Assembly (NCBI RefSeq): GCF_003018255.1
Contig: NZ_CP027440.1
Source of the DNA: Escherichia coli
GTDB lineage: Bacteria; Pseudomonadota; Gammaproteobacteria; Enterobacterales; Enterobacteriaceae
DNA: 64,000 bases
Strand: one strand, 5' to 3'
In this document: positions 1 through 43,286 of the stretch, one piece after another
How positions within the stretch are numbered: the stretch's first letter is position 1
Layout: the number at the start of each line of letters is the position of its first letter
Made by a program: the position numbers and the translations under genes
The notes under the pieces: generated by a model
What the model was told of the DNA's origin: nothing
The model's input: only the letters and a program-made list of their open reading frames with translations
The model's database searches: none

Positions 1-137
1 TCCATGGTGTCCATAAAGAACGGTTGGGTACTGTTAAATTGATGCGGCTGGGGTTTATCGTTTCGCCAGTGCTGATGTTCACGCAGTAACGCTTCAAGCG
101 CCTGCAACTGGAGACGAACGCGGTCATGAGTGGTCAT
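1..137 (-). CDS. yqcC: DUF446-family protein, N-terminal part only (gene continues past the window start)
   Basis: Minus-strand ATG at 137 opens MTTHDRVRLQLQALEALLREHQHWRNDKPQPHQFNSTQPFFMDTM with no stop before the window edge. Position upstream of csrB and syd matches the K-12 order as I recall it. Confidence 0.6.
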   Translation of the reverse strand, partial: MTTHDRVRLQLQALEALLREHQHWRNDKPQPHQFNSTQPFFMDTM

Positions 138-180
138 AAAGCAACCTCAATAAGAAAAACTGCCGCGAAGGATAGCAGGA

Positions 181-548
181 ATAAAAAAAGGGAGCACTGT
201 ATTCACAGTGCTCCCGGTTCGTTTCGCAGCATTCCGGCTACTTTTGTTGCTCCCTGCTCATCCTTGACAACTTTTCCTCTGGCCTTGCGGCCAATCGTTC
301 ATCCTGAACTATTGCTTCCTGCTCACACCACCCCGATGTGATACTTCATCCTGAAGTGTTCCTGGCCTTCCTGACCCACCGAATCATCCTGACCGGTTCT
401 CATTCTCCATCCTGGAGGTGTCCTTTAACGCGTCCTGCGTCATCCTCTTCGCTTCATCCAGAAGCCTTTCCCTGAAACACCATCCTGGTGTGTCCTTCAG
501 AAGTGTCATCATCCTGATGTTCACTTCGTTGTCTGACTCCCTGTCGAC
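181..548 (-). ncRNA. csrB: CsrB small RNA (CsrA-sequestering sRNA)
   Basis: Minus strand reads GTCGACAGGGAGTCAGACAACGAAGTGAACATCAGGATG... with at least eight CAGGA(T/A)G-type GGA motifs (seen as catcctg on the plus strand). It ends in a hairpin GGGAGCACTGTGAATACAGTGCTCCC plus a T-run (plus-strand 183-215). About 368 nt, matching the CsrB sequence as I recall it; ends are approximate. Confidence 0.9.
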
Positions 549-758
549 GAAGATAGAATCGTCTTTTTCGCGAAGTCTTACAAGGCGCTTACAGACAATG
601 CCTTAAGGAAAATTTCATATGAAAGTTAAGAATTAACAAGCAACATGTTGTTTTTAAATGAGAATAACGATTCTTATCTTTTTAAGTATTCGCTTATTTC
701 CTGGCGATCTCCTACAGAGTCTGTAAGAGATCTCTCACAACCAGATGGGGTATTTGGA

Positions 759-1304
759 TTACAGAAGAGGCTTAAGTTGATTAAGGAATTCCGCAAGATT
801 TGAGGCTAAATGCGTCCGTTTACGTGTTCCTAGCGTCTCTTTGCACACTTCACCGGAGAGATTACACACCGAGATGACCTCTAACTCTTCTTCCAGCGTC
901 GCGATAAATAGCGTGGGCGGCAGTTTTAGCCTTTTCTGAGTCACCAGATGACCAATCAGATTTTCCTGCACCCGACGGAAATCGTCTTCACTCCAGGTTT
1001 GCAGCAATGTCAGTTTGATATCGCCAAACTGCGCGTGCATATCCCCGGCAAACTGAGTCGTATAAAAGGTATGAATCGTGGGTTGTATCACAATATCAAA
1101 AGCGCGTTCAACCGCGTTTACATTTTGTTCCCCGGTAAACGGCTGGGGTTGCCAGTATACGGCATCTTCGGTAGTTGAAATAATGCACGGTGAAGGAACG
1201 CCGTACAGTTCCTCACTTAACGGCCAGCTTTTATGCTCTTCATGCCACGCATCGCAGTAGCGTGCAGTAAAATCTTTCAGGGCTTGTGCGGTCAAATCGT
1301 CCAC
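759..1304 (-). CDS. syd: SecY-interacting protein Syd
   Basis: 181-aa [32 protein letters not shown]... recognised as Syd; conserved position next to csrB and queF. Confidence 0.93.
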
Positions 1305-1371
1305 TAATTTCTCTCTTCACTTAAACCAGATACACTTGTCGTTTAGTTTATCTGGTTTATGACGGTGAAAC

Positions 1372-2220
1372 ATGTCTTCTTATGCAAACCATCAGGCACT
1401 TGCGGGCCTGACTCTTGGAAAATCAACCGATTACCGGGATACCTATGACGCCAGCCTACTGCAAGGCGTTCCACGCAGCCTGAATCGCGACCCGCTGGGT
1501 CTGAAAGCGGATAACCTGCCTTTTCACGGTACGGATATCTGGACGCTGTATGAACTTTCCTGGCTGAATGCGAAAGGTTTGCCGCAGGTCGCTGTCGGTC
1601 ATGTTGAACTTGATTACACCAGCGCAAATCTGATTGAGTCGAAGAGTTTTAAGCTCTATCTCAACAGTTTTAACCAGACGCGTTTTAATAACTGGGATGA
1701 GGTGCGCCAGACGCTGGAGCGCGACTTAAGCACTTGCGCTCAGGGTAAGGTTAGCGTGGCGTTATATCGTCTTGATGAACTGGAAGGCCAACCGATAGGT
1801 CATTTCAATGGCACTTGCATTGATGACCAGGATATCACTATCGATAACTATGAATTCACTACTGACTATCTGGAGAATGCCACCAGTGGCGAAAAAGTAG
1901 TAGAAGAGACGCTCGTCAGCCACCTGCTGAAATCAAATTGCCTGATCACCCATCAACCAGATTGGGGATCGATCCAAATTCAGTATCGTGGACGCCAAAT
2001 TGACAGAGAAAAACTGCTGCGTTACCTGGTTTCTTTCCGTCATCACAACGAGTTCCACGAACAGTGCGTGGAACGCATCTTTAATGACCTGTTACGCTTC
2101 TGCCAGCCAGAGAAATTGAGCGTTTACGCACGTTATACCCGTCGTGGCGGTCTGGACATTAACCCGTGGCGCAGTAATAGCGATTTTGTCCCATCGACCA
2201 CAAGACTGGTTCGGCAATAA
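1372..2220 (+). CDS. queF: NADPH-dependent 7-cyano-7-deazaguanine reductase
   Basis: 282-aa [38 protein letters not shown]...; length and sequence match E. coli QueF (YqcD). Confidence 0.93.
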
Positions 2221-2331
2221 ATTTTTTCTCAATTTTGCGTGCTGGATTCACGCAGAAGGTTGTGAAAGGTCATCAGGCAGGGCTATTGTAATCAAAGGGA
2301 ATGACGATATTCGTCCCATAAGGAGTTTTTC

Positions 2332-3696
2332 TTGATTACACATATTAGCCCGCTTGGCTCCATGGATATGTTGTCGCAGCTGGAAGTGGATATGCTTAAA
2401 CGCACCGCCAGCAGCGACCTCTATCAACTGTTTCGCAACTGTTCACTTGCCGTACTGAACTCCGGTAGTTTGACCGATAACAGCAAAGAATTGCTGTCTC
2501 GTTTTGAAAATTTCGATATTAACGTCCTGCGCCGTGAACGCGGCGTAAAGCTGGAACTGATAAATCCCCCGGAAGAGGCTTTTGTCGATGGGCGAATTAT
2601 TCGCGCTTTGCAGGCCAACTTGTTCGCGGTTCTGCGTGACATTCTCTTCGTTTACGGGCAAATCCATAACACCGTTCGTTTTCCCAACCTGAATCTCGAC
2701 AACTCCGTCCACATCACTAACCTGGTCTTTTCCATCTTGCGTAACGCTCGCGCACTGCATGTCGGTGAAGCGCCAAATATGGTGGTCTGCTGGGGCGGGC
2801 ACTCAATTAACGAAAACGAGTATTTGTATGCCCGTCGCGTCGGGAATCAGCTGGGCCTGCGTGAGCTGAATATCTGCACCGGCTGTGGTCCGGGAGCGAT
2901 GGAAGCGCCGATGAAAGGCGCTGCGGTCGGACACGCACAGCAGCGTTACAAAGACAGTCGTTTTATTGGTATGACAGAGCCGTCGATTATCGCCGCTGAA
3001 CCGCCTAACCCGCTGGTCAACGAATTGATCATCATGCCGGATATCGAAAAACGTCTGGAAGCGTTTGTCCGTATCGCTCACGGTATCATTATCTTCCCTG
3101 GCGGTGTGGGTACGGCAGAAGAGTTGCTGTATTTGCTGGGAATTTTAATGAACCCGGCCAACAAAGATCAGGTTTTACCATTGATCCTCACCGGCCCGAA
3201 AGAGAGCGCCGACTACTTCCGCGTACTGGACGAGTTTGTCGTGCATACATTGGGTGAAAACGCGCGCCGCCATTACCGCATCATCATTGATGACGCCGCT
3301 GAAGTCGCTCGTCAGATGAAAAAATCGATGCCGCTGGTGAAAGAAAATCGCCGCGACACAGGCGATGCCTACAGCTTTAACTGGTCAATGCGCATTGCGC
3401 CAGATTTGCAAATGCCGTTTGAGCCGTCTCACGAGAATATGGCTAATCTGAAGCTTTACCCGGATCAACCCGTTGAAGTGCTGGCTGCCGACCTGCGCCG
3501 TGCGTTCTCCGGTATTGTGGCGGGTAACGTAAAAGAAGTCGGTATTCGCGCCATTGAAGAGTTTGGTCCTTATAAAATCAACGGCGATAAAGAGATTATG
3601 CGTCGTATGGATGACCTGCTACAGGGTTTTGTTGCCCAGCATCGTATGAAGTTGCCAGGCTCAGCCTACATCCCTTGCTACGAAATCTGCACGTAA
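2332..3696 (+). CDS. ppnN: Nucleotide 5'-monophosphate nucleosidase PpnN (LOG family)
   Basis: 454-aa [37 protein letters not shown]... matches YgdH/PpnN. Confidence 0.92.
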
Positions 3697-4251
3697 TCTC
3701 CCTCCCCCGGTGACGTTTGTTGCCGGGTTTTCTCGTTTTTGGTCACATACCCATCAATTTATTTCATTTGTTATATGAATGTTTCTTACCACCCTCATGC
3801 GATAAATTTCATTACAGTTAATATGTCATACAATTTATGTTGTAACGCAAACGTTTCCCTATTTTCATAAACCACATTTTATCGCTATGAAAAAGAAATT
3901 ATCGCCATGATTAACTAAAAGTATTGATTTTTTCAGTTCAACCTACATATATTGCGCGCCCCGGAAGAAGTCAGATGTCGTTTAATGGGCAAATATTGCC
4001 CTTAAATTCTCTTTTACTTTTGATTTACAGAGTAAAGCGTTGGGATAATCTATCTTCCAAGTAGATTATTGTATTTGGGATCAAGATCACTGATAGATAC
4101 ATAACTTGTGTGTATCTTTCCGCCCTCAAATTATTACGGCGGTAAATGATTAAGCCATCGCCTATAGACAGATTTCATTTTTACGGTCAGGCACCTTCCC
4201 GGGCTGAACTGGCTAAAAGCTGAATTATTTGCATTCCTCCAGGAGAAATAG

Positions 4252-5598: not shown

Positions 5599-7832
<2,234 letters not shown>

Positions 7833-7886
7833 CGGCGTGCCGGATACGGCGCAAACGTCGCATCCGGCATTATCACATCAGCGCAT

Positions 7887-9035
7887 TTACCAGGCGGTAT
7901 GGTAAAGCTCTACAATATCCTCAAGCGTTGCTTCACGCGGGTTGCCACCGGTACAAACATCATCCAGTGCCGCCTGCGCCAGTGTCGGAATATCTTCCTT
8001 ACGTACACCAACATCACGTAAATGTGGCGGAATACCGACATCACGGTTGAGAGCAAACACCGCTTCAACAGCGGCATTACGCGCCTCTTCCAGGCTCATA
8101 CCTTCCACTTTCACGCCCATAACGCGTGCGATATCGCGGTACTTCTCACCGGTAAAGTCAGCGTTATAACGCATAACATGCGGTAACAGGATGGCGTTCG
8201 CAACACCGTGTGGCGTGTTGTAAAACGCGCCCAGTGGATGCGCCATACCATGCACCAACCCTAACCCAACATTCGAGAATCCCATACCCGCAACATACTG
8301 CCCGAGCGCCATTTCTTCTCCGGCATCCTTATCACCAGCAACCGATCCTCGCAGCGCCCCAGCAATGATTTCAATCGCTTTAATGTGCAGCGCATCGGTT
8401 AGCGCCCACGCGCCACGGGTAATATACCCCTCAATAGCATGAGTGAGCGCATCGACACCCGTCGCAGCTTTCAGCGCTGGAGGCATACCATCCATCATGT
8501 CAGCGTCAATAAACGCCACCTGCGGGATATCATGCGGATCAACGCAAACAAACTTGCGCCGTTTTTCTTCGTCAGTGATCACGTAGTTAATGGTCACTTC
8601 TGCCGCAGTACCTGCTGTGGTGGGGATTGCCAGAATCGGTACACTGGGTTTATTGGTCGGGGAAAGCCCTTCCAGGCTACGCACATCGGCAAACTCCGGG
8701 TTGTTGCTGATAATGCCAATCGCTTTACAAGTATCCTGTGGAGAACCGCCACCAATAGCGATCAGGTAATCCGCGCCGCTATTCTGGAATACACCGAGCC
8801 CTTCTTTGACGACAGTAATTGTTGGGTTCGGCACTACGCCGTCGTAAATCGCCCATGCCAGCCCTGCAGCATCCATCTTATCGGTCACTTTTGCCACCAC
8901 GCCGCATTGCACCAGCGTTTTATCGGTGACGATCAGCGCCTTCTGATAACCACGGCGTTTCACCTCATCGGTTAAAGACCCAACAGCCCCCCGACCAAAC
9001 CATGCCGTTTCGTTCAGAATCATTCTGTTAGCCAT
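7887..9035 (-). CDS. fucO: L-1,2-propanediol oxidoreductase (lactaldehyde reductase)
   Basis: Iron-containing alcohol dehydrogenase MANRMILNETAWFGRG... Start taken at the second Met of the track ORF (382 aa). Confidence 0.95.
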   Translation of the reverse strand: MANRMILNETAWFGRGAVGSLTDEVKRRGYQKALIVTDKTLVQCGVVAKVTDKMDAAGLAWAIYDGVVPNPTITVVKEGLGVFQNSGADYLIAIGGGSPQDTCKAIGIISNNPEFADVRSLEGLSPTNKPSVPILAIPTTAGTAAEVTINYVITDEEKRRKFVCVDPHDIPQVAFIDADMMDGMPPALKAATGVDALTHAIEGYITRGAWALTDALHIKAIEIIAGALRGSVAGDKDAGEEMALGQYVAGMGFSNVGLGLVHGMAHPLGAFYNTPHGVANAILLPHVMRYNADFTGEKYRDIARVMGVKVEGMSLEEARNAAVEAVFALNRDVGIPPHLRDVGVRKEDIPTLAQAALDDVCTGGNPREATLEDIVELYHTAW

Positions 9036-9062
9036 CATCCTTCTCCTTGTTGCTTTACGAAA

Positions 9063-9710
9063 TTACTCTTCAATCCGTAACCCGTAGGTTTTGAATTTCT
9101 CCAGCACTACGGCAATCTCTTCATCGCTCAGCACTGGCACCGGGTCCGTAATCGCCAGGGTCGTCAGGTAAAGTTGTGCCAGCACTTCAACTTCATGCGC
9201 CAGCCATAACGCTTTCTCCAGATTCGCCTCACAAGCGATAAGCCCATGATGTTGTAACAAAGTTGCCTTACGATTTTTGAGAGCCAGCGCAACATGTTCA
9301 GAAAGTTCGCGTGTTCCAAAGGTCGCATAAGGCGCGCAAGGAATAGAATTACCGCCAGCCGCCGCAATCATGTAGTGAATCGCGGGGATCGGTCGGTTAA
9401 GAATGGAAACTGCCGTACAATGAACGGCATGATTGTGAACAACCGCGTTGGCATCCGGTCTGCTTTGATAGGCCGCCATATGGAAACGCCACTCGCTTGA
9501 GGGGAGTTTTCCTTCCTCATGTTTGCCGTTGCCATCAATAAAGACAATATGCGACTCCGTCAGTTTTTCATATGGAATGCCTGTAGGCGTAATCAGCATC
9601 CCATCCTGATAACGTACACTGACGTTACCCGCTGTCCCCTGGTTCAGTCCCAGGCGGGTCATTTCCAGGCAAGTGTCAATAATCTGACGAGCAAGTTTAT
9701 TTCGTTCCAT
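9063..9710 (-). CDS. fucA: L-fuculose-phosphate aldolase
   Basis: 215-aa class II aldolase MERNKLARQIIDTCLEMTRLGLNQGTAGNVSVRY... Confidence 0.95.
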   Translation of the reverse strand: MERNKLARQIIDTCLEMTRLGLNQGTAGNVSVRYQDGMLITPTGIPYEKLTESHIVFIDGNGKHEEGKLPSSEWRFHMAAYQSRPDANAVVHNHAVHCTAVSILNRPIPAIHYMIAAAGGNSIPCAPYATFGTRELSEHVALALKNRKATLLQHHGLIACEANLEKALWLAHEVEVLAQLYLTTLAITDPVPVLSDEEIAVVLEKFKTYGLRIEE

Positions 9711-18717: not shown

Positions 18718-18923
18718 ACTTCCTGAGCCGGAACGAAAAGTTTTATCGGAATGCGTGTTCTGGTGAACTTTTGGCTTACGGTTGTGATGTTGTGTTGTTG
18801 TGTTTGCAATTGGTCTGCGATTCAGACCATGGTAGCAAAGCTACCTTTTTTCACTTCCTGTACATTTACCCTGTCTGTCCATAGTGATTAATGTAGCACC
18901 GCCTAATTGCGGTGCTTTTTTTT
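18718..18923 (+). ncRNA. gcvB: GcvB small RNA (Hfq-dependent)
   Basis: Divergent from gcvA. Sequence ACTTCCTGAGCCGGAACGAAAAGTTTTATCGG...GTTGTGATGTTGTGTTGTTGTGTTTGC (G/U-rich R1 region) ending in hairpin GCACCGCCTAATTGCGGTGC plus T8 (18916-18923). About 206 nt. Confidence 0.9.
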
Positions 18924-23246: not shown

Positions 23247-23323
<77 letters not shown>

Positions 23324-23356
23324 ATTAAAATTTGATGAAGTAAAGCAGTACGGTGA

Positions 23357-23433
<77 letters not shown>

Positions 23434-23466
23434 ATCAAAATTTGATGAAATAAAGCAGTACGGTGA

Positions 23467-23529
<63 letters not shown>

Positions 23530-23543
<14 letters not shown>

Positions 23544-37085: not shown

Positions 37086-38300
37086 ATGCCCATCCGACTT
37101 AATACCATTCCCGACGCAGAACCCTATCCCGCACCGCCAGCCCGCATTAAATGGCTGTCAGCCTTATTACTGATGCTGTCTGTTGGTGTGGCAATAACCT
37201 CATTATTCGCCAGCGATGAACTGGCAAAAAACGGCCCATATTTCTGGGGGCTGGCCTGCGGCGTGCCTGCTTTTATCTGGTCACTGGTCGGTTCGGTGCG
37301 CTGGCTGGTATTTGTCACTCAACATATTCGTGCCGATGCCTGGAATCAACGTCGCGAAGAAGTCATTTTGCAGGAAACACGGCGGGGACGACGGGCGTTG
37401 CAGATACTCAGTTTTTCCGTACAAACCGCGCTGAATGGTGATTCCGTCGCAGAAACTACAACAGCATTTCTGGCGCGTCATCAGGTGTTGAATACTTACG
37501 CTGATTTGCGCGGAGAAGATACCGTGCGTCGCAGTGTCATTCCCGTATTAACCAATAAACCGGTTACCGGGCGTTTATCCGAAATTATTTCCCGCCTTTT
37601 TATTGATATCAGACCGCAATTGTTTCTGCTGCCCCCTGATTTTCATATCAACGTACTACTGGAAATTGATGCGCCGCTTTCAGGGGCCTCCGTGAGAACT
37701 ATCTGGCAGGACGAATGGCAAAAAGCCGGACTCCCCGAAGCCCGTCTGTTTTCTGCCCCGGAGCCGGGGCTGGCCGCCGTGGACGACTGGCTGGACAACT
37801 TTATTCAGGAAAAGGCCGTACTGCTGGTGATTTCCGTGCGTCTGGAACCGAAGAACCCGGAACGGACGGCAGAATCCGCCACCGCGCTGTTGCTGGCAAA
37901 CCGACTGACGCAAACCGCGCTGACGCCGCTGGCCCTGCTGCATCGTCCTGAACGTATCACAGATACGGAGATGATGGCGTCAGGCATTGCACAGGCGCTG
38001 GACTGGATGCCGGTGCAGCCAGATGCCATATCCGGCATGTGGACAGTCGAACTGAACAGGGAACAGCGCGCCTCGCTGCTGTCATCTAACCAGCCGTTTA
38101 CTCAGGAAGCCCTGATGTACGAGCTGGATGCCTTTCTGGGGTGCTCCGGACCGGCAGCGCCGTGGCTGTCCGTCGCTGCGGCAACGCTGGCGGCAATACA
38201 ATCACAACACCCCCAACTGACGCTCAGCGGCGTTCAGAACGGGCATTATTCATGGGCGACCATGGTGTCGCCATTCGTTTCCCCTCAGGAGGCATCATAG
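37086..38300 (+). CDS. Uncharacterised T6SS-cluster inner-membrane protein (two N-terminal TM helices plus cytoplasmic domain)
   Basis: 404 aa, GC-rich like the core genes. TM segments WLSALLLMLSVGVAITSLF and FWGLACGVPAFIWSLVGSVRWLVFV. Stop TAG overlaps the tssM GTG start. Confidence 0.6.
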   Translation: MPIRLNTIPDAEPYPAPPARIKWLSALLLMLSVGVAITSLFASDELAKNGPYFWGLACGVPAFIWSLVGSVRWLVFVTQHIRADAWNQRREEVILQETRRGRRALQILSFSVQTALNGDSVAETTTAFLARHQVLNTYADLRGEDTVRRSVIPVLTNKPVTGRLSEIISRLFIDIRPQLFLLPPDFHINVLLEIDAPLSGASVRTIWQDEWQKAGLPEARLFSAPEPGLAAVDDWLDNFIQEKAVLLVISVRLEPKNPERTAESATALLLANRLTQTALTPLALLHRPERITDTEMMASGIAQALDWMPVQPDAISGMWTVELNREQRASLLSSNQPFTQEALMYELDAFLGCSGPAAPWLSVAAATLAAIQSQHPQLTLSGVQNGHYSWATMVSPFVSPQEAS

Positions 38301-41300
38301 TGGTTCCGGGATTAAACCGTCTCCGGCCCCGTTCGGTTTCAGGGCCTGCCATCGTCATGACCGTGGCCGTTGTGGTTGCGCTTTGCACGTTTATTCACCG
38401 TAAACCGGCATTGCTGGGCGTTGAACCGGGTAGTTCACAGCAAATGTACTGGATGGCTGGCGTGATTGCCGCAGGTGTGGTCTTTCTGATTATCATGGGG
38501 GTTTATCATCTGCTGAACCGCCACGCTGCCGTACAGAGCTTTGAACTCCACAGACAGCTTGCCGCCGGAGATGACTATCGGGCGGTGACGACAAAGAAAG
38601 CCGACAGCCGTCATCCGGCAATGGTGGAACTCGCCGCCTTCCTGCGCGACCGCTACGGCCCATTCTGGCGGCGTAAAATCCGCCTGCTGCTGGTGACCGG
38701 CGAGCCTGAACAGGCAGAGGCCATCGCGCCGGGGCTGACCGGGCAACACTGGCTGGAGGGCGACCACACGGTGCTGATATATGGCGGCAGGCCATCTACA
38801 GAGCCTGATGTCGCGCTACTGACCGCCTTAAAAAAACTGCGCCGCAGCCGTCCGCTGGACGGCATCATCTGGCCGCTGACAGAAGAACAGAGCCGCCAGA
38901 CGGCGCAACTCGACAAAGGCTGGCGCGAACTGATAAACGGCGGTAAGCGACTCGGTTTTCAGGCTCCACTCTATTTGTGGCAGGTCTGTGACAACGGTGA
39001 TTATCAGACCGGACGCCCCCTGCAAAGCGTCGGCTGCCTGCTGTCGGAACGCTGTACCCCGGAACAACTGGCTGCAATGCTGGAAGCACAAACCCTGCCG
39101 CTGACGGAACAGGGCATGTCGCAGCTGCTTACCGATAACCGCCATGATTTCCTGCTGCGTCTGGCCCATACCCTTGCAGAGCGGGGTATCGCTCACTGGC
39201 AAAGTATCCTGAAACCGCTGCTGGCAGGCGGCGCATTTTCCTCCCTGCGCCTGCGTGGCCTGATGTTCAGCCCGCCGCTTACCGCCGTACCGGAAGCCGC
39301 ACCTCATGCGTGGCTGCCGTCACCGGTCTGGGCGGGCGTGACCGGCGATAACGCGCGGGGTCGCACGGTGGGCTTTCCGTGGCTGCGTATCACGCTGATG
39401 TCTGCTGTCTGCGTACTGGCGATATGGGGGGCCGGAATGACGACCTCGTTCTTCGCCAACCGCGCACTTGTTCAGGAAACCAGCATCCAGACGGCGCGTG
39501 CACTCGATATCCGTCTGCCGCTGTCTGAACAACTGGTGGCGCTGCATACCCTGCAGGGTGAACTGGAGCGCCTGCAGTACCGTATCCGGGAGGGTGCGCC
39601 GTGGTATCAGCGTTTTGGCCTTGAACGTAACCAGCAACTGCTCGCCGCCGCCTTTCCCGGCTATGCGCAGGCGGCAAACCGGCTGGTGCGCGACGTGGCC
39701 GTTGACCATCTGCAACAGCAACTGAATGCCTTTGTCGCGCTGCCGCCCAATAGTCCGCAGCGTACCGCCACCGGCGAACAGCGCTATAAGCAGCTTAAGG
39801 CATTGCTGATGACTTCCCGCCCGGAAAAGGCCGACGCTGCCTTTTTCAGTACCACGCTGATGGCAGATGACCTGCGCTATGCAGGTGTACCGGAAGGTGT
39901 GCGTCAGAGCGTGTTGCCGTCACTGCTGACCTTCTGGATGGCGAATCTGCCGGAACACCCACAGTGGAAAACTTCGCCGCCACCGGAACTGACCGGCGCA
40001 GTGCGCAAAATCCTGCTGCGCCAGATTGGTGTGCGCAATGCCGAAAACACTCTCTACCAGAACGTACTGCAACAGGTGTCCCGCAACTACGCCGATATGA
40101 CGCTGGCGGACATGACCGGGGATACGCTCACCGAATCTCTTTTCAGTACGGAGCAGACGGTGCCGGGGATGTTTACCCGTCAGGCGTGGGAAGGACAGGT
40201 CAGGGAAGCCATCGAGCAGGTGGTGACGGCGCGGCGCGAGGAAATCGACTGGGTACTCAGCGACCGCCAGCAGGATACCTCTGCGGATATCTCGCCGGAT
40301 ATGCTGCGTAACCGTCTCACTTCACGCTACTTTACCGACTTTGCCGGAAGCTGGCTGGCGTTTCTCAACAGCATTCGCTGGAAAAAGGAAGACTCGCTCT
40401 CCGGCATTCTCGACCAGTTGACGCTGATGGCCGATGCCCGCCAGTCACCGCTGATTGCGCTGACAGACACCCTCGCGTGGCAGGCGGCGGCTGGCAGGGA
40501 AAACCGTGGCCTGTCAGACTCGCTGGCGAAATCGGCACAGGAACTGTTTAACGGCAAGGAGAAAACGCCGCAGCAATCCCGTGAAGGCGACGTGCCTGTC
40601 GGGCCGCTGGATAAAACCTTCGCGCCGCTGCTGCGGTTGCTTGGCGATAAGGCAGGAGGCGGCGACAGCCAGCTGAGCCTGCAGACCTACCTCACCCGAG
40701 TCACCCGCGTGCGCCTCAAACTGCAACAGGTGACCAACGCCCCTGACCCGCAGGAGATGACCCAGCAACTGGCGCAGACGGTCTTACAAGGCAAAACCGT
40801 TGACCTTACCGACACCCGCGACTATGGCAGCCTGATAGCCGCCAGTCTGGGTGAAGAGTGGAGTGGCTTCGGTCAGGCGCTGTTCGTCCGCCCGGTGGAG
40901 CAGTCATGGCGGCAGGTGCTGACGCCTGCGGCAGACAGCCTGAACCGCCAGTGGCAGCGGGCGATTGTCAGCCACTGGGATCAGGACTTCGCTGGTCGCT
41001 ACCCGTTCAAAGCCTCACAAAACGATGCCTCCCTCCCCCTGCTGGCGCAGTACCTGCGCGATGACGGGCGCATCAACCAGTTTATCGCCGCCAATCTTTC
41101 CGGCGTACTGAAACGTGAAGGCCGCTACTGGGTGGCTGACGCCATGAACACGCAGGGGCTGACAGTCAATCCGGACTTTATTCGCGCCCTGAACCGCCTG
41201 CGCGATGTGGCCGATACCGCCTTTGCCAGCGGCGATGCAGGGATACATTTTGAACTGCGGGCAAAACCGGCGCGCGACGTGATGAAGACGCATCTGGTGA

Positions 41301-41683
41301 TTGACGGGCAGGAGCTGGAATATTTCAACCAGAAGGAACGCTGGCAGCGTTTTAACTGGCCGGATGAACAGTGGCAACCCGGCGCATCGCTGAGCTGGAC
41401 CAGTACGCAGGCGATGGAACGCATACTGGCGGATTATCGGGGAAGCTGGAGCCTTATTCGCCTGCTGGAACAGGCGCAGGTGACACCGGTGGACAGCAGT
41501 ACCTTTAAAGTGGTGTGGAAAGCGCAGGACGGCCTGCCGCTGAATTACCTGCTGCGGGTTGAACAGGGTAAAGGGCCGCTGGCGCTGCTGGAACTGAAAA
41601 ACTTCCGCCTGCCGGGACAGGTGTTCCTGACCGGCAGGAGTATGAAGGATGCGGAAGAATACGGGGAAGACGCCGATGAGTGA
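38300..41683 (+). CDS. tssM: T6SS membrane-complex protein TssM (IcmF-like)
   Basis: Start placed at GTG 38300 with AGGAGG at 38287-38292, giving 1127 aa with the canonical TM1-TM2-cytoplasmic-TM3-periplasmic layout. The track's ATG 38141 would overlap the upstream gene by 160 nt. Confidence 0.85.
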   Translation: MVPGLNRLRPRSVSGPAIVMTVAVVVALCTFIHRKPALLGVEPGSSQQMYWMAGVIAAGVVFLIIMGVYHLLNRHAAVQSFELHRQLAAGDDYRAVTTKKADSRHPAMVELAAFLRDRYGPFWRRKIRLLLVTGEPEQAEAIAPGLTGQHWLEGDHTVLIYGGRPSTEPDVALLTALKKLRRSRPLDGIIWPLTEEQSRQTAQLDKGWRELINGGKRLGFQAPLYLWQVCDNGDYQTGRPLQSVGCLLSERCTPEQLAAMLEAQTLPLTEQGMSQLLTDNRHDFLLRLAHTLAERGIAHWQSILKPLLAGGAFSSLRLRGLMFSPPLTAVPEAAPHAWLPSPVWAGVTGDNARGRTVGFPWLRITLMSAVCVLAIWGAGMTTSFFANRALVQETSIQTARALDIRLPLSEQLVALHTLQGELERLQYRIREGAPWYQRFGLERNQQLLAAAFPGYAQAANRLVRDVAVDHLQQQLNAFVALPPNSPQRTATGEQRYKQLKALLMTSRPEKADAAFFSTTLMADDLRYAGVPEGVRQSVLPSLLTFWMANLPEHPQWKTSPPPELTGAVRKILLRQIGVRNAENTLYQNVLQQVSRNYADMTLADMTGDTLTESLFSTEQTVPGMFTRQAWEGQVREAIEQVVTARREEIDWVLSDRQQDTSADISPDMLRNRLTSRYFTDFAGSWLAFLNSIRWKKEDSLSGILDQLTLMADARQSPLIALTDTLAWQAAAGRENRGLSDSLAKSAQELFNGKEKTPQQSREGDVPVGPLDKTFAPLLRLLGDKAGGGDSQLSLQTYLTRVTRVRLKLQQVTNAPDPQEMTQQLAQTVLQGKTVDLTDTRDYGSLIAASLGEEWSGFGQALFVRPVEQSWRQVLTPAADSLNRQWQRAIVSHWDQDFAGRYPFKASQNDASLPLLAQYLRDDGRINQFIAANLSGVLKREGRYWVADAMNTQGLTVNPDFIRALNRLRDVADTAFASGDAGIHFELRAKPARDVMKTHLVIDGQELEYFNQKERWQRFNWPDEQWQPGASLSWTSTQAMERILADYRGSWSLIRLLEQAQVTPVDSSTFKVVWKAQDGLPLNYLLRVEQGKGPLALLELKNFRLPGQVFLTGRSMKDAEEYGEDADE

Positions 41684-43286
41684 ACTGTTGCAAAAGCTGA
41701 CCCGTAGCTGTTTTGCCGACCGGGACGCACTGGACTCGGCGCGAACACAGGCGGCGCTGTGGCAGACATGGCTGCTGCCGGTGACGGCAGATACGCCGGT
41801 CGGGGAAGACCCCGGCTACCACGACGATTTCCTGCGTATCCGCGACGAGATGAACAAACTTTCCGGCGCGGATACGGACCTTATCTGCCAGCTTGCCGAA
41901 TCCCTGCTGCTGACGCAGGCAAAAGACGTGCGCATCGCCACTTACTATATCTGGGCGCGACTGCACCGCGATGGCGAACGCGGACTGGCTGAGGGGCTGG
42001 CGCTGTTAGCCGGACTGGTGGAACGCTTCGGTGCGCAACTGCTGCCCTCGCGCCCGGCAAGCCGAAAAATGGCGCTGGAGTGGCTGGCAGGGGAAAAGAT
42101 GCTCGACAGCCTTGCCCGCTACCCGGAAGTGGCAAAAGAGGATTTTGCGAACATTGTTGCCGCTCTTAATCAACTGACGGTTTCCTTCACTGCATGGCCC
42201 GAAGACCAGCATTCCCCCTCCCTGATGCCGCTGATTAACGCGCTGGAATCACGTCTGGCGCAGTCGGGTGGGATGAACGCGGTGGTGCCGCAGAACAGCA
42301 GCGGCGTTCCGGCACCGTCTTCCCCGGTGGATGCGCCACAGGTACAGACCATCACTTCCGGGCGCGACCTGCTCGACCAGGCGAAAGTGCTGGCCCGTTA
42401 TCTGAACGAACAGCCGCAGGGCTGGCTTTCAGCACACCGGCTGATGAAAACCCTGCGCTGGGACACGGTGCATGAACTGCCGCCGGATGTGGACGGAAAA
42501 ACCCGGCTGGCCCCGCCGCGCACAGAATCACGCAACCAGCTTAAGCGGCTGTATGCTCAGCAGAACTGGACGGAACTGCTGGAGCAGGCCGACCTGATGT
42601 TCAGCACCGGCGTCAGCCATTTCTGGCTGGACATTCAGTGGTATCTGCATCAGGCGCTGACTAAGGCGGGCGCACCGTGGGACAGGTGGACAGCGGTTAT
42701 CCGTCAGGACCTGGCGTTACTACTGGAACGCCTGCCGGGGCTGGAAAATCTGGCATGGAACGACGGCACGCCGTTCGCCGATGAGTTGACGCGCAACTGG
42801 ATAGCGCAGCAGGTCATGATGCGGGAAGACGGCGCATGGCTTGCGGGGAAAGCCGCTGTACCGACAGACGACGCCACAAACGACGTACTGGCGCTGGAGC
42901 CGGAAGCGCTGGAGATGGCAGACAGTCAGGGCGTGGAAGCGGCGCTGGGCTGGATACAGACCCGTCCGGGCATCACCACGGCACGCCAGCGCCTGTTATT
43001 GCGACTGCTGATGGCGCGGGTGGCGGAACAGTACGGTAAAAACGAGATGGCGCTCCTGCTGCTGGAAGAACTGGATATCGCCGCACAGGGGCTGACGCTG
43101 ACGCAGTGGGAGCCGGACCTGCTGTTTGAGGTAAAAGCCCGACAGCTGAAACAGCTGCGCCTGCGGGCGCACCGCTATGCGGATAAAGCCCTGCTGAACC
43201 GAAAAATGGAAATCCTGCTGGGAACGCTGGTGACAATAGATCCGGTACGGGCAGCGGTATTGTGTGATACGCAACATAAGGACTGA
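41676..43286 (+). CDS. tssA: T6SS protein TssA (ImpA N-terminal domain)
   Basis: MSELLQKLTRSCFADRDALDSARTQAALWQTWLLPVTADTPVGEDPGYHDDFLRIRDEM... (ImpA_N signature). ATG 41676 overlaps the tssM stop (ATGAGTGA). Confidence 0.8.
   Translation: MSELLQKLTRSCFADRDALDSARTQAALWQTWLLPVTADTPVGEDPGYHDDFLRIRDEMNKLSGADTDLICQLAESLLLTQAKDVRIATYYIWARLHRDGERGLAEGLALLAGLVERFGAQLLPSRPASRKMALEWLAGEKMLDSLARYPEVAKEDFANIVAALNQLTVSFTAWPEDQHSPSLMPLINALESRLAQSGGMNAVVPQNSSGVPAPSSPVDAPQVQTITSGRDLLDQAKVLARYLNEQPQGWLSAHRLMKTLRWDTVHELPPDVDGKTRLAPPRTESRNQLKRLYAQQNWTELLEQADLMFSTGVSHFWLDIQWYLHQALTKAGAPWDRWTAVIRQDLALLLERLPGLENLAWNDGTPFADELTRNWIAQQVMMREDGAWLAGKAAVPTDDATNDVLALEPEALEMADSQGVEAALGWIQTRPGITTARQRLLLRLLMARVAEQYGKNEMALLLLEELDIAAQGLTLTQWEPDLLFEVKARQLKQLRLRAHRYADKALLNRKMEILLGTLVTIDPVRAAVLCDTQHKD

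Follow-up and report, generated by a model that had tools for sequence, protein, structure and literature searches.

The csrB locus and its extent

The DNA analysed here comprises 64 kb, and this whole stretch is referred to as the window. Three genes on the minus strand lie at its beginning:

1-137, minus strand: yqcC, 5′ part, running off the window edge (coordinates carried over from the MG1655 and PGAP annotations)
180-548, minus strand: csrB, the gene of the 369-nt noncoding RNA CsrB, with +1 at 548 and the 3′ end at 180 (Rfam RF00018 and alignment with MG1655 b4408)
759-1304, minus strand: syd, coding for the SecY-interacting protein and located upstream of csrB (ORF list and annotation)

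The covariance model of the CsrB/RsmB family (RF00018) matched the minus strand at 539-180 over its full length (model positions 1-356 of 356) with 381.7 bits at a gathering score of 71 (E = 4.9e-111); overlapping Rfam matches to families of one clan were resolved to the best one. The MG1655 csrB gene (b4408, 369 nt) aligned to the minus strand without gaps and from end to end, with 365 of 369 positions identical. The first-pass annotation had assigned the region to CsrB and had named a covariance-model search and an alignment with the MG1655 locus as checks, and both returned the RNA. Of the extent proposed there (181-548), position 548 was exact; since MG1655 csrB aligns end to end on 180-548, the 3′ end lies at 180, and the earlier value fell one base short in the U-tail. 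Positions 180-548 are thus, with near certainty, E. coli csrB, specifying an untranslated RNA of 369 nt that starts at 548.

The genomic context was in agreement. In the curated MG1655 record, the ncRNA gene csrB (b4408) is located at 2924156-2924524 of NC_000913.3 on the minus strand between yqcC and syd, and the gene order yqcC-csrB-syd-queF-ppnN is common to the window and MG1655. The alignment of positions 1-3700 with MG1655 was collinear and free of indels, with 48 mismatches. A 601-nt query (window 100-700), consisting of csrB with flanks of about 80 and 150 nt, matched 5,425 of 5,426 complete E. coli genomes at an identity of at least 95%; at least six of the matches listed, all in other complete genomes of E. 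coli, were 100% identical. The allele of the window is a common natural one. CsrB has been characterised since 1997, and the copy described here is an already known gene with known regulatory and decay elements and nothing unusual about it.

The same search gave some minor observations on the distribution of the locus: one of the 5,426 complete genomes had no match and 22 had a partial match only, some genomes carried the locus in two places, and one match was located on a plasmid.

GGA motifs, hairpin array and 3′ end of the RNA

The following features were assigned within the transcribed region, all on the minus strand:

226-519, minus strand: array of 11 short hairpins whose loops contain GGA (Rfam consensus structure mapped to these positions)
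216-225, minus strand: unstructured segment GAAACGAACC just upstream of the terminator (matches the published RNase E "necessary cleavage site")
190-215, minus strand: intrinsic terminator hairpin GGGAGCACUGU-GAAU-ACAGUGCUCCC (terminator scan and MFE fold)
180-189, minus strand: U-tract UUUUUUUAUU completing the terminator (sequence, terminator scan and MG1655 alignment)

Repeated CAGGATG units with a GGA core on the minus strand had been reported in the first-pass annotation, and six exact copies were located (300-306, 347-353, 385-391, 408-414, 481-487, and 510-516). On both strands of the 64-kb window, CAGGATG occurred 17 times versus 7.9 times expected, a number that was reached in none of 100 shuffles. 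The GGA core itself was found 22 times on the minus strand of 180-548 versus twice on the plus strand. This region is the densest 369-nt stretch of the window for minus-strand GGA (mean 4.6, SD 2.4), and the next best stretch outside the first 1 kb contained 13. The loops of the 11 hairpins read CAGGAUG, AGGAU, UGGAU, AGGAC, CAGGAAG, AGGAA, AAGGAU, or CGGAAU. In an MFE fold of the single sequence (−117.7 kcal/mol, z = −3.5), most GGA motifs were likewise placed in hairpin loops. As judged from the sequence, the GGA motifs in the loops and the further ones in single-stranded parts are the predicted CsrA-binding sites.

Conservation of this array was evaluated with orthologues, for which 100,044 species genomes were scanned for an exact 18-mer given in upper case (conserved) in the Rfam consensus. 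CsrB was delimited by Rfam in 20 Enterobacterales loci (203-382 bits), and 18 orthologues together with the window formed an alignment of 19 Enterobacterales species. In this alignment, 92.7% of the cells assigned to pairs by the Rfam structure were paired, versus 37-51% when the 3′ partners were slid by one to three columns. Compensatory double changes were present at 26 of 54 pairs, compared with 10.3 ± 2.3 expected, and none of 500 shuffles gave a value as high. Each orthologue contained 19-27 GGA on the RNA strand and one to three on the opposite strand, while the identity dropped to about 50%. Long-range pairs proposed by RNAalifold (MAFFT columns 31-46 with 311-323) were set aside because they are nearly invariant, and as such uninformative, and are absent from the Rfam structure.

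At the 3′ end, the strong hairpin followed by a T-run that had been noticed earlier was recovered by the terminator scan. Its stem comprises 11 pairs, seven of them G-C, closes a 4-nt loop and is directly followed by TTTTTTTATT, with seven U in a row. Across the 19 species the terminator helix was 97.9% paired and contained three covarying pairs. The adjoining segment GAAACGAACC is identical to that of MG1655 and almost invariant in the 19 species. The published RNase E cuts in the unstructured part of CsrB that precedes the terminator are at A327 and A331 (PMC5027483); these correspond to window 222 and 218, inside GAAACGAACC. For the CsrB fragment +263-369, five GGA motifs, one of them in the terminator, were described (PMC5027483); five GGA at RNA positions 272, 286, 296, 314, and 335 of the window copy match this description exactly.

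The scan for orthologues also returned two findings that stand apart from the window copy. In Enterobacillus tribolii DSM 103736 (NZ_QRAP01000005.1, 7700-9299), three full-length CsrB genes are arranged in a head-to-tail tandem, all on the minus strand (7700-8078, 8311-8690, and 8922-9299; 232-239 bits; 27 GGA each). The three copies are about 97% identical to each other, and each has a UvrY-like inverted repeat about 190 nt upstream. To our knowledge, a tandem triplication of csrB has not been reported in Enterobacterales. The second finding concerns about 25 contigs from outside the Enterobacterales (Cytophagaceae, Firmicutes, and others) that contain the exact 18-mer. Roughly nine chance matches are expected for an exact 18-mer in 298 Gb on both strands, and these contigs were treated as unrelated to CsrB. 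Five of them, all Cytophagaceae/Spirosoma and hence from one family, share the 18-mer AAGGATGAGCAGGGAGCA, which is above chance for one family and probably reflects conserved coding sequence unrelated to CsrB.

Control region and predicted mode of action

Upstream of +1, three elements were located between csrB and syd:

722-739, minus strand: UvrY-P inverted repeat TGTGAGAGATCTCTTACA, 18 bp (sequence and position as in PMC4682653)
708-716, minus strand: half-site-like TGTAGGAGA, 5 bp downstream of the inverted repeat (sequence; reported in PMC4682653)
638-653, no strand assigned: candidate IHF site, palindromic, with one mismatch to WATCAANNNNTTR on either strand (pattern scan)

According to Zere et al. 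2015 (PMC4682653), the TGTGAGAGATCTCTTACA sequence centred at −183/−182 is the binding site of UvrY-P at E. coli csrB. Measured from +1 at 548, the centre of the repeat in the window is at −183/−182, as published; by its sequence and spacing, the element at 739-722 on the minus strand is recognised as this UvrY-P site. It is separated by 20 bp from the stop codon of syd. For the position of +1, the analysis relied on the 5′ end as annotated and on the spacing from the UvrY box given in the literature; this spacing fits exactly. The box recurred at a comparable distance, with zero to two mismatches, in 16 other loci that extended far enough upstream; among 300 random pieces of 300 nt taken from the window, the best chance match had at least five mismatches. 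The same study reports the 9-mer TGTAGGAGA downstream of the repeat for csrB of E. coli and Salmonella, and states that csrB requires IHF, with a putative IHF site between two UvrY cross-linking regions (PMC4682653). Located downstream of the UvrY box and upstream of the promoter (about −105 to −90), the match at 638-653 is a weak candidate for such an IHF site. A simple sigma-70 scan of positions 1-1400 revealed no consensus promoter on either strand, including the region upstream of 548, which would be consistent with an activator-dependent promoter.

The following course of events is proposed for the locus. Phosphorylated UvrY bound to the inverted repeat at −183/−182 would, aided by IHF, activate transcription of csrB from 548. 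The transcript would fold into a string of short hairpins that present GGA, typically within CAGGAUG, in their loops, with additional GGA motifs in single-stranded linkers, and would end at the strong intrinsic terminator. Through its multiple high-affinity GGA sites, the RNA is expected to sequester CsrA and so keep it from mRNAs. By SELEX, CsrA has the consensus RUACARGGAUGU, in which GGA occupies the loop of a short hairpin, and one CsrA dimer can bridge two sites (PMC7652899). RNase E would initiate decay by cutting in the unstructured GAAACGAACC immediately ahead of the terminator. In CsrB, the RNase E segment is shielded by CsrA occupying the last GGA sites, and CsrD overcomes this protection (PMC5027483); the same shielding of GAAACGAACC, and its relief by CsrD, may be assumed for the window copy. 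The binding of CsrA, the dependence on UvrY and IHF, and the decay via RNase E and CsrD are taken from the literature and should carry over to this copy by virtue of sequence identity.

CsrB of the window and CsrB of K-12 MG1655 are alike in length (369 nt), neighbouring genes, the number of GGA (22), terminator, RNase E segment, and UvrY box, and differ at four points (window 209, 236, 360, and 497). At 209, an A-U pair in the terminator stem of the window takes the place of a G·U pair in K-12; the change at 236 lies in a hairpin loop beside a GGA that is kept; at 360, one GGA is moved by a base (CAGGGAC to CAGGAAC); and at 497, CUGCAGGAC is changed to CUGAAGGAC, which is the Rfam consensus. 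In all four cases either the GGA count or the pairing is kept, and the substitutions appear to be conservative.

The window sequence matches CsrB and not CsrC in Rfam. E. coli CsrC resembles CsrB as a GGA-rich decoy of CsrA that is activated by UvrY and turned over by CsrD and RNase E (PMC4682653, PMC5027483, PMC7652899). It differs in its shorter length, its locus, the weaker inverted repeat for UvrY, and its independence of IHF (PMC4682653). RsmY/RsmZ/RsmX of Pseudomonas and CsrB/C/D of Vibrio also titrate CsrA/RsmA by multiple GGA hairpin loops under GacA/UvrY-type control (PMC7652899). Unlike CsrB, these RNAs are much shorter, have fewer sites, and belong to different Rfam families. Titration by GGA loops is the principle common to all of them and CsrB. 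Pseudomonads are devoid of CsrD, and RsmA protects the sRNA from decay there (PMC5027483).

Reading frames across csrB and their annotation

Four open reading frames cross the csrB gene:

126-341, plus strand: spurious ORF, 71 aa, ATG start, antisense to the 3′ part of csrB (ORF list)
418-606, plus strand: spurious ORF, 62 aa, GTG start, antisense to the 5′ part of csrB and its promoter (ORF list)
338-475, plus strand: ORF, 45 aa (ORF list)
384-524, minus strand: ORF, 46 aa, GTG start, on the sense strand (ORF list)

The first-pass annotation had cited the frames at 126-341 and 418-606, both of which were returned by the mechanical ORF list, and had dismissed them as artefacts inside a noncoding RNA. 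This judgement was upheld by the absence of Pfam matches and RefSeq coding sequences and by frames that are broken in sister species in which GGA is kept. A Pfam scan with the translations of all four ORFs gave no match at E ≤ 1. At the csrB locus, the curated MG1655 record and a PGAP record with 100% identity over 100-700 are both free of CDS annotations. Frame conservation was judged by the length modulo 3 and by in-frame stops only, as indel counts per row were inflated by gap columns of the alignment. All four ORFs lose their start or frame in related species.

Composition accounts for the length of the antisense frames. CsrB consists of 64% purines, and its antisense strand accordingly of 64% pyrimidines, giving 0.030 expected stops per codon versus 0.045 for the whole window; long antisense frames occur because the pyrimidine-rich composition lowers the stop frequency. 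The frames crossing csrB are by-products of this composition and encode no proteins.

Three alternatives, each of which we consider extremely improbable, were weighed against this reading. One of them takes the 46-aa frame at 384-524 on the sense strand, with its GTG start, as a second product of CsrB, which would then be a dual-function RNA. Dual-function sRNAs such as SgrS/SgrT are known in E. coli, and this frame is uninterrupted in E. albertii and E. whittamii as well as in the window. However, Citrobacter and more distant genera have GAG, GCG, or ACG instead of the GTG, and most of them also show stops or frameshifts; the translation has no Pfam counterpart, and the frame is situated in the part of the RNA occupied by CsrA. 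In ribosome profiling of EHEC, CsrB had a ribosomal coverage value of 0.04, determined for the RNA strand only, and was used to exemplify RNAs that are not translated (PMC5331693). A coding function of CsrB in addition to that of a CsrA decoy is consequently given hardly any credence.

Equally little speaks for the plus-strand frames at 126-341, 418-606, or both as real small-protein genes antisense to csrB, although they do exist with 71 and 62 codons' worth of translation and some of the records examined might seem to favour them. E. whittamii has an uninterrupted frame at 418-606. In E. albertii this frame is truncated by a stop at codon 51, in C. sedlakii it is shifted, and in Citrobacter portucalensis, Yokenella, Trabulsiella, and others codon 15 is a stop; in-frame stops are present in most other genera. 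At 97% DNA identity, E. albertii and E. whittamii differ by 1 nt in the length of the frame at 126-341, and both have a stop at its codon 17. The frame at 126-341 would start inside the start region of yqcC, whose first 12 nt it overlaps on the opposite strand, and would read through the terminator hairpin. The sigma-70 scan of 1-1400 mentioned above offered no promoter-like site on either strand, neither antisense translation has a Pfam match at E ≤ 1, no CDS is present in the curated MG1655 record or the PGAP record of identical sequence, and long open frames are expected on a strand with 64% pyrimidines.

Database entries for the two translations were inspected by exact look-up in a collection of 15 billion proteins. 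The 62-aa translation of 418-606 was absent from this collection, and the 71-aa translation of 126-341 was present. Four NCBI accessions give the latter as "hypothetical protein, partial [Escherichia coli]" (HHU8161389.1, MFW8406410.1, MGS5120525.1, and MGS5252404.1), and close variants are found under MCO1592211.1, HHE2955858.1, MGS5155004.1, and WP_447325250.1; among the cluster members listed, five NCBI-sourced entries (eight accessions) contain the 71-aa ORF or a close variant. These deposits might be read in favour of an antisense gene, but they are automated "hypothetical, partial" calls. A "636-member" cluster was rejected as support: the representative of this 90%-identity cluster (P0002, 96 aa) is unrelated, and therefore the cluster size is uninformative on the 71-aa ORF, whose placement there looks like a clustering error.

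The third alternative is restricted to Escherichia and regards either the sense frame at 384-524 or the antisense frame at 418-606 as a very young, lineage-specific translated small ORF, a view to which we attach a negligible probability. If it were true, csrB would be a dual-function or overlapping-gene locus in Escherichia only. We retain the reading of csrB as an untranslated RNA whose crossing frames result from composition.

The practical value of these results is in annotation quality, with the csrB locus serving as an annotation mask, and they hold no discovery value. The gene is annotated in the curated MG1655 record and not in the PGAP/RefSeq record NZ_AP025214.2, which is identical over 100-700 and shows no feature between yqcC and syd (window 138-758). 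A few automated submissions have filled this gap with a "hypothetical protein" that is the antisense of CsrB. In scans of ORF tracks, the csrB locus should be masked with the Rfam match; an ncRNA feature belongs at 180-548 on the minus strand, and overlapping CDS calls should be dropped. More broadly, where a long frame runs antisense to a purine-rich (GGA-rich) RNA, it is best regarded as a compositional artefact.

Other features of the window were recorded in passing. The small RNA GcvB gave a full-length Rfam match (199 bits) at 18718-18923 on the plus strand. At 23247-23543 on the plus strand, three tandem tRNA-Met (CAT) genes with equal scores and a spacing of 110 bp were found, presumably the metZ-metW-metV initiator tRNA cluster. 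Two large ORFs of 1180 aa and 545 aa with overlapping ends occupy 38141-43286 on the plus strand and, judging by their translations, look like type VI secretion components (TssM/IcmF-like and TssA-like). We take them to be absent from K-12 at the same position, which would make the window part of a non-K-12 strain with an island. Coding sequence within the 1180-aa ORF accounts for the second-densest GGA stretch of the window, which begins at about 41297 on the plus strand and has 19 GGA per 369 nt.
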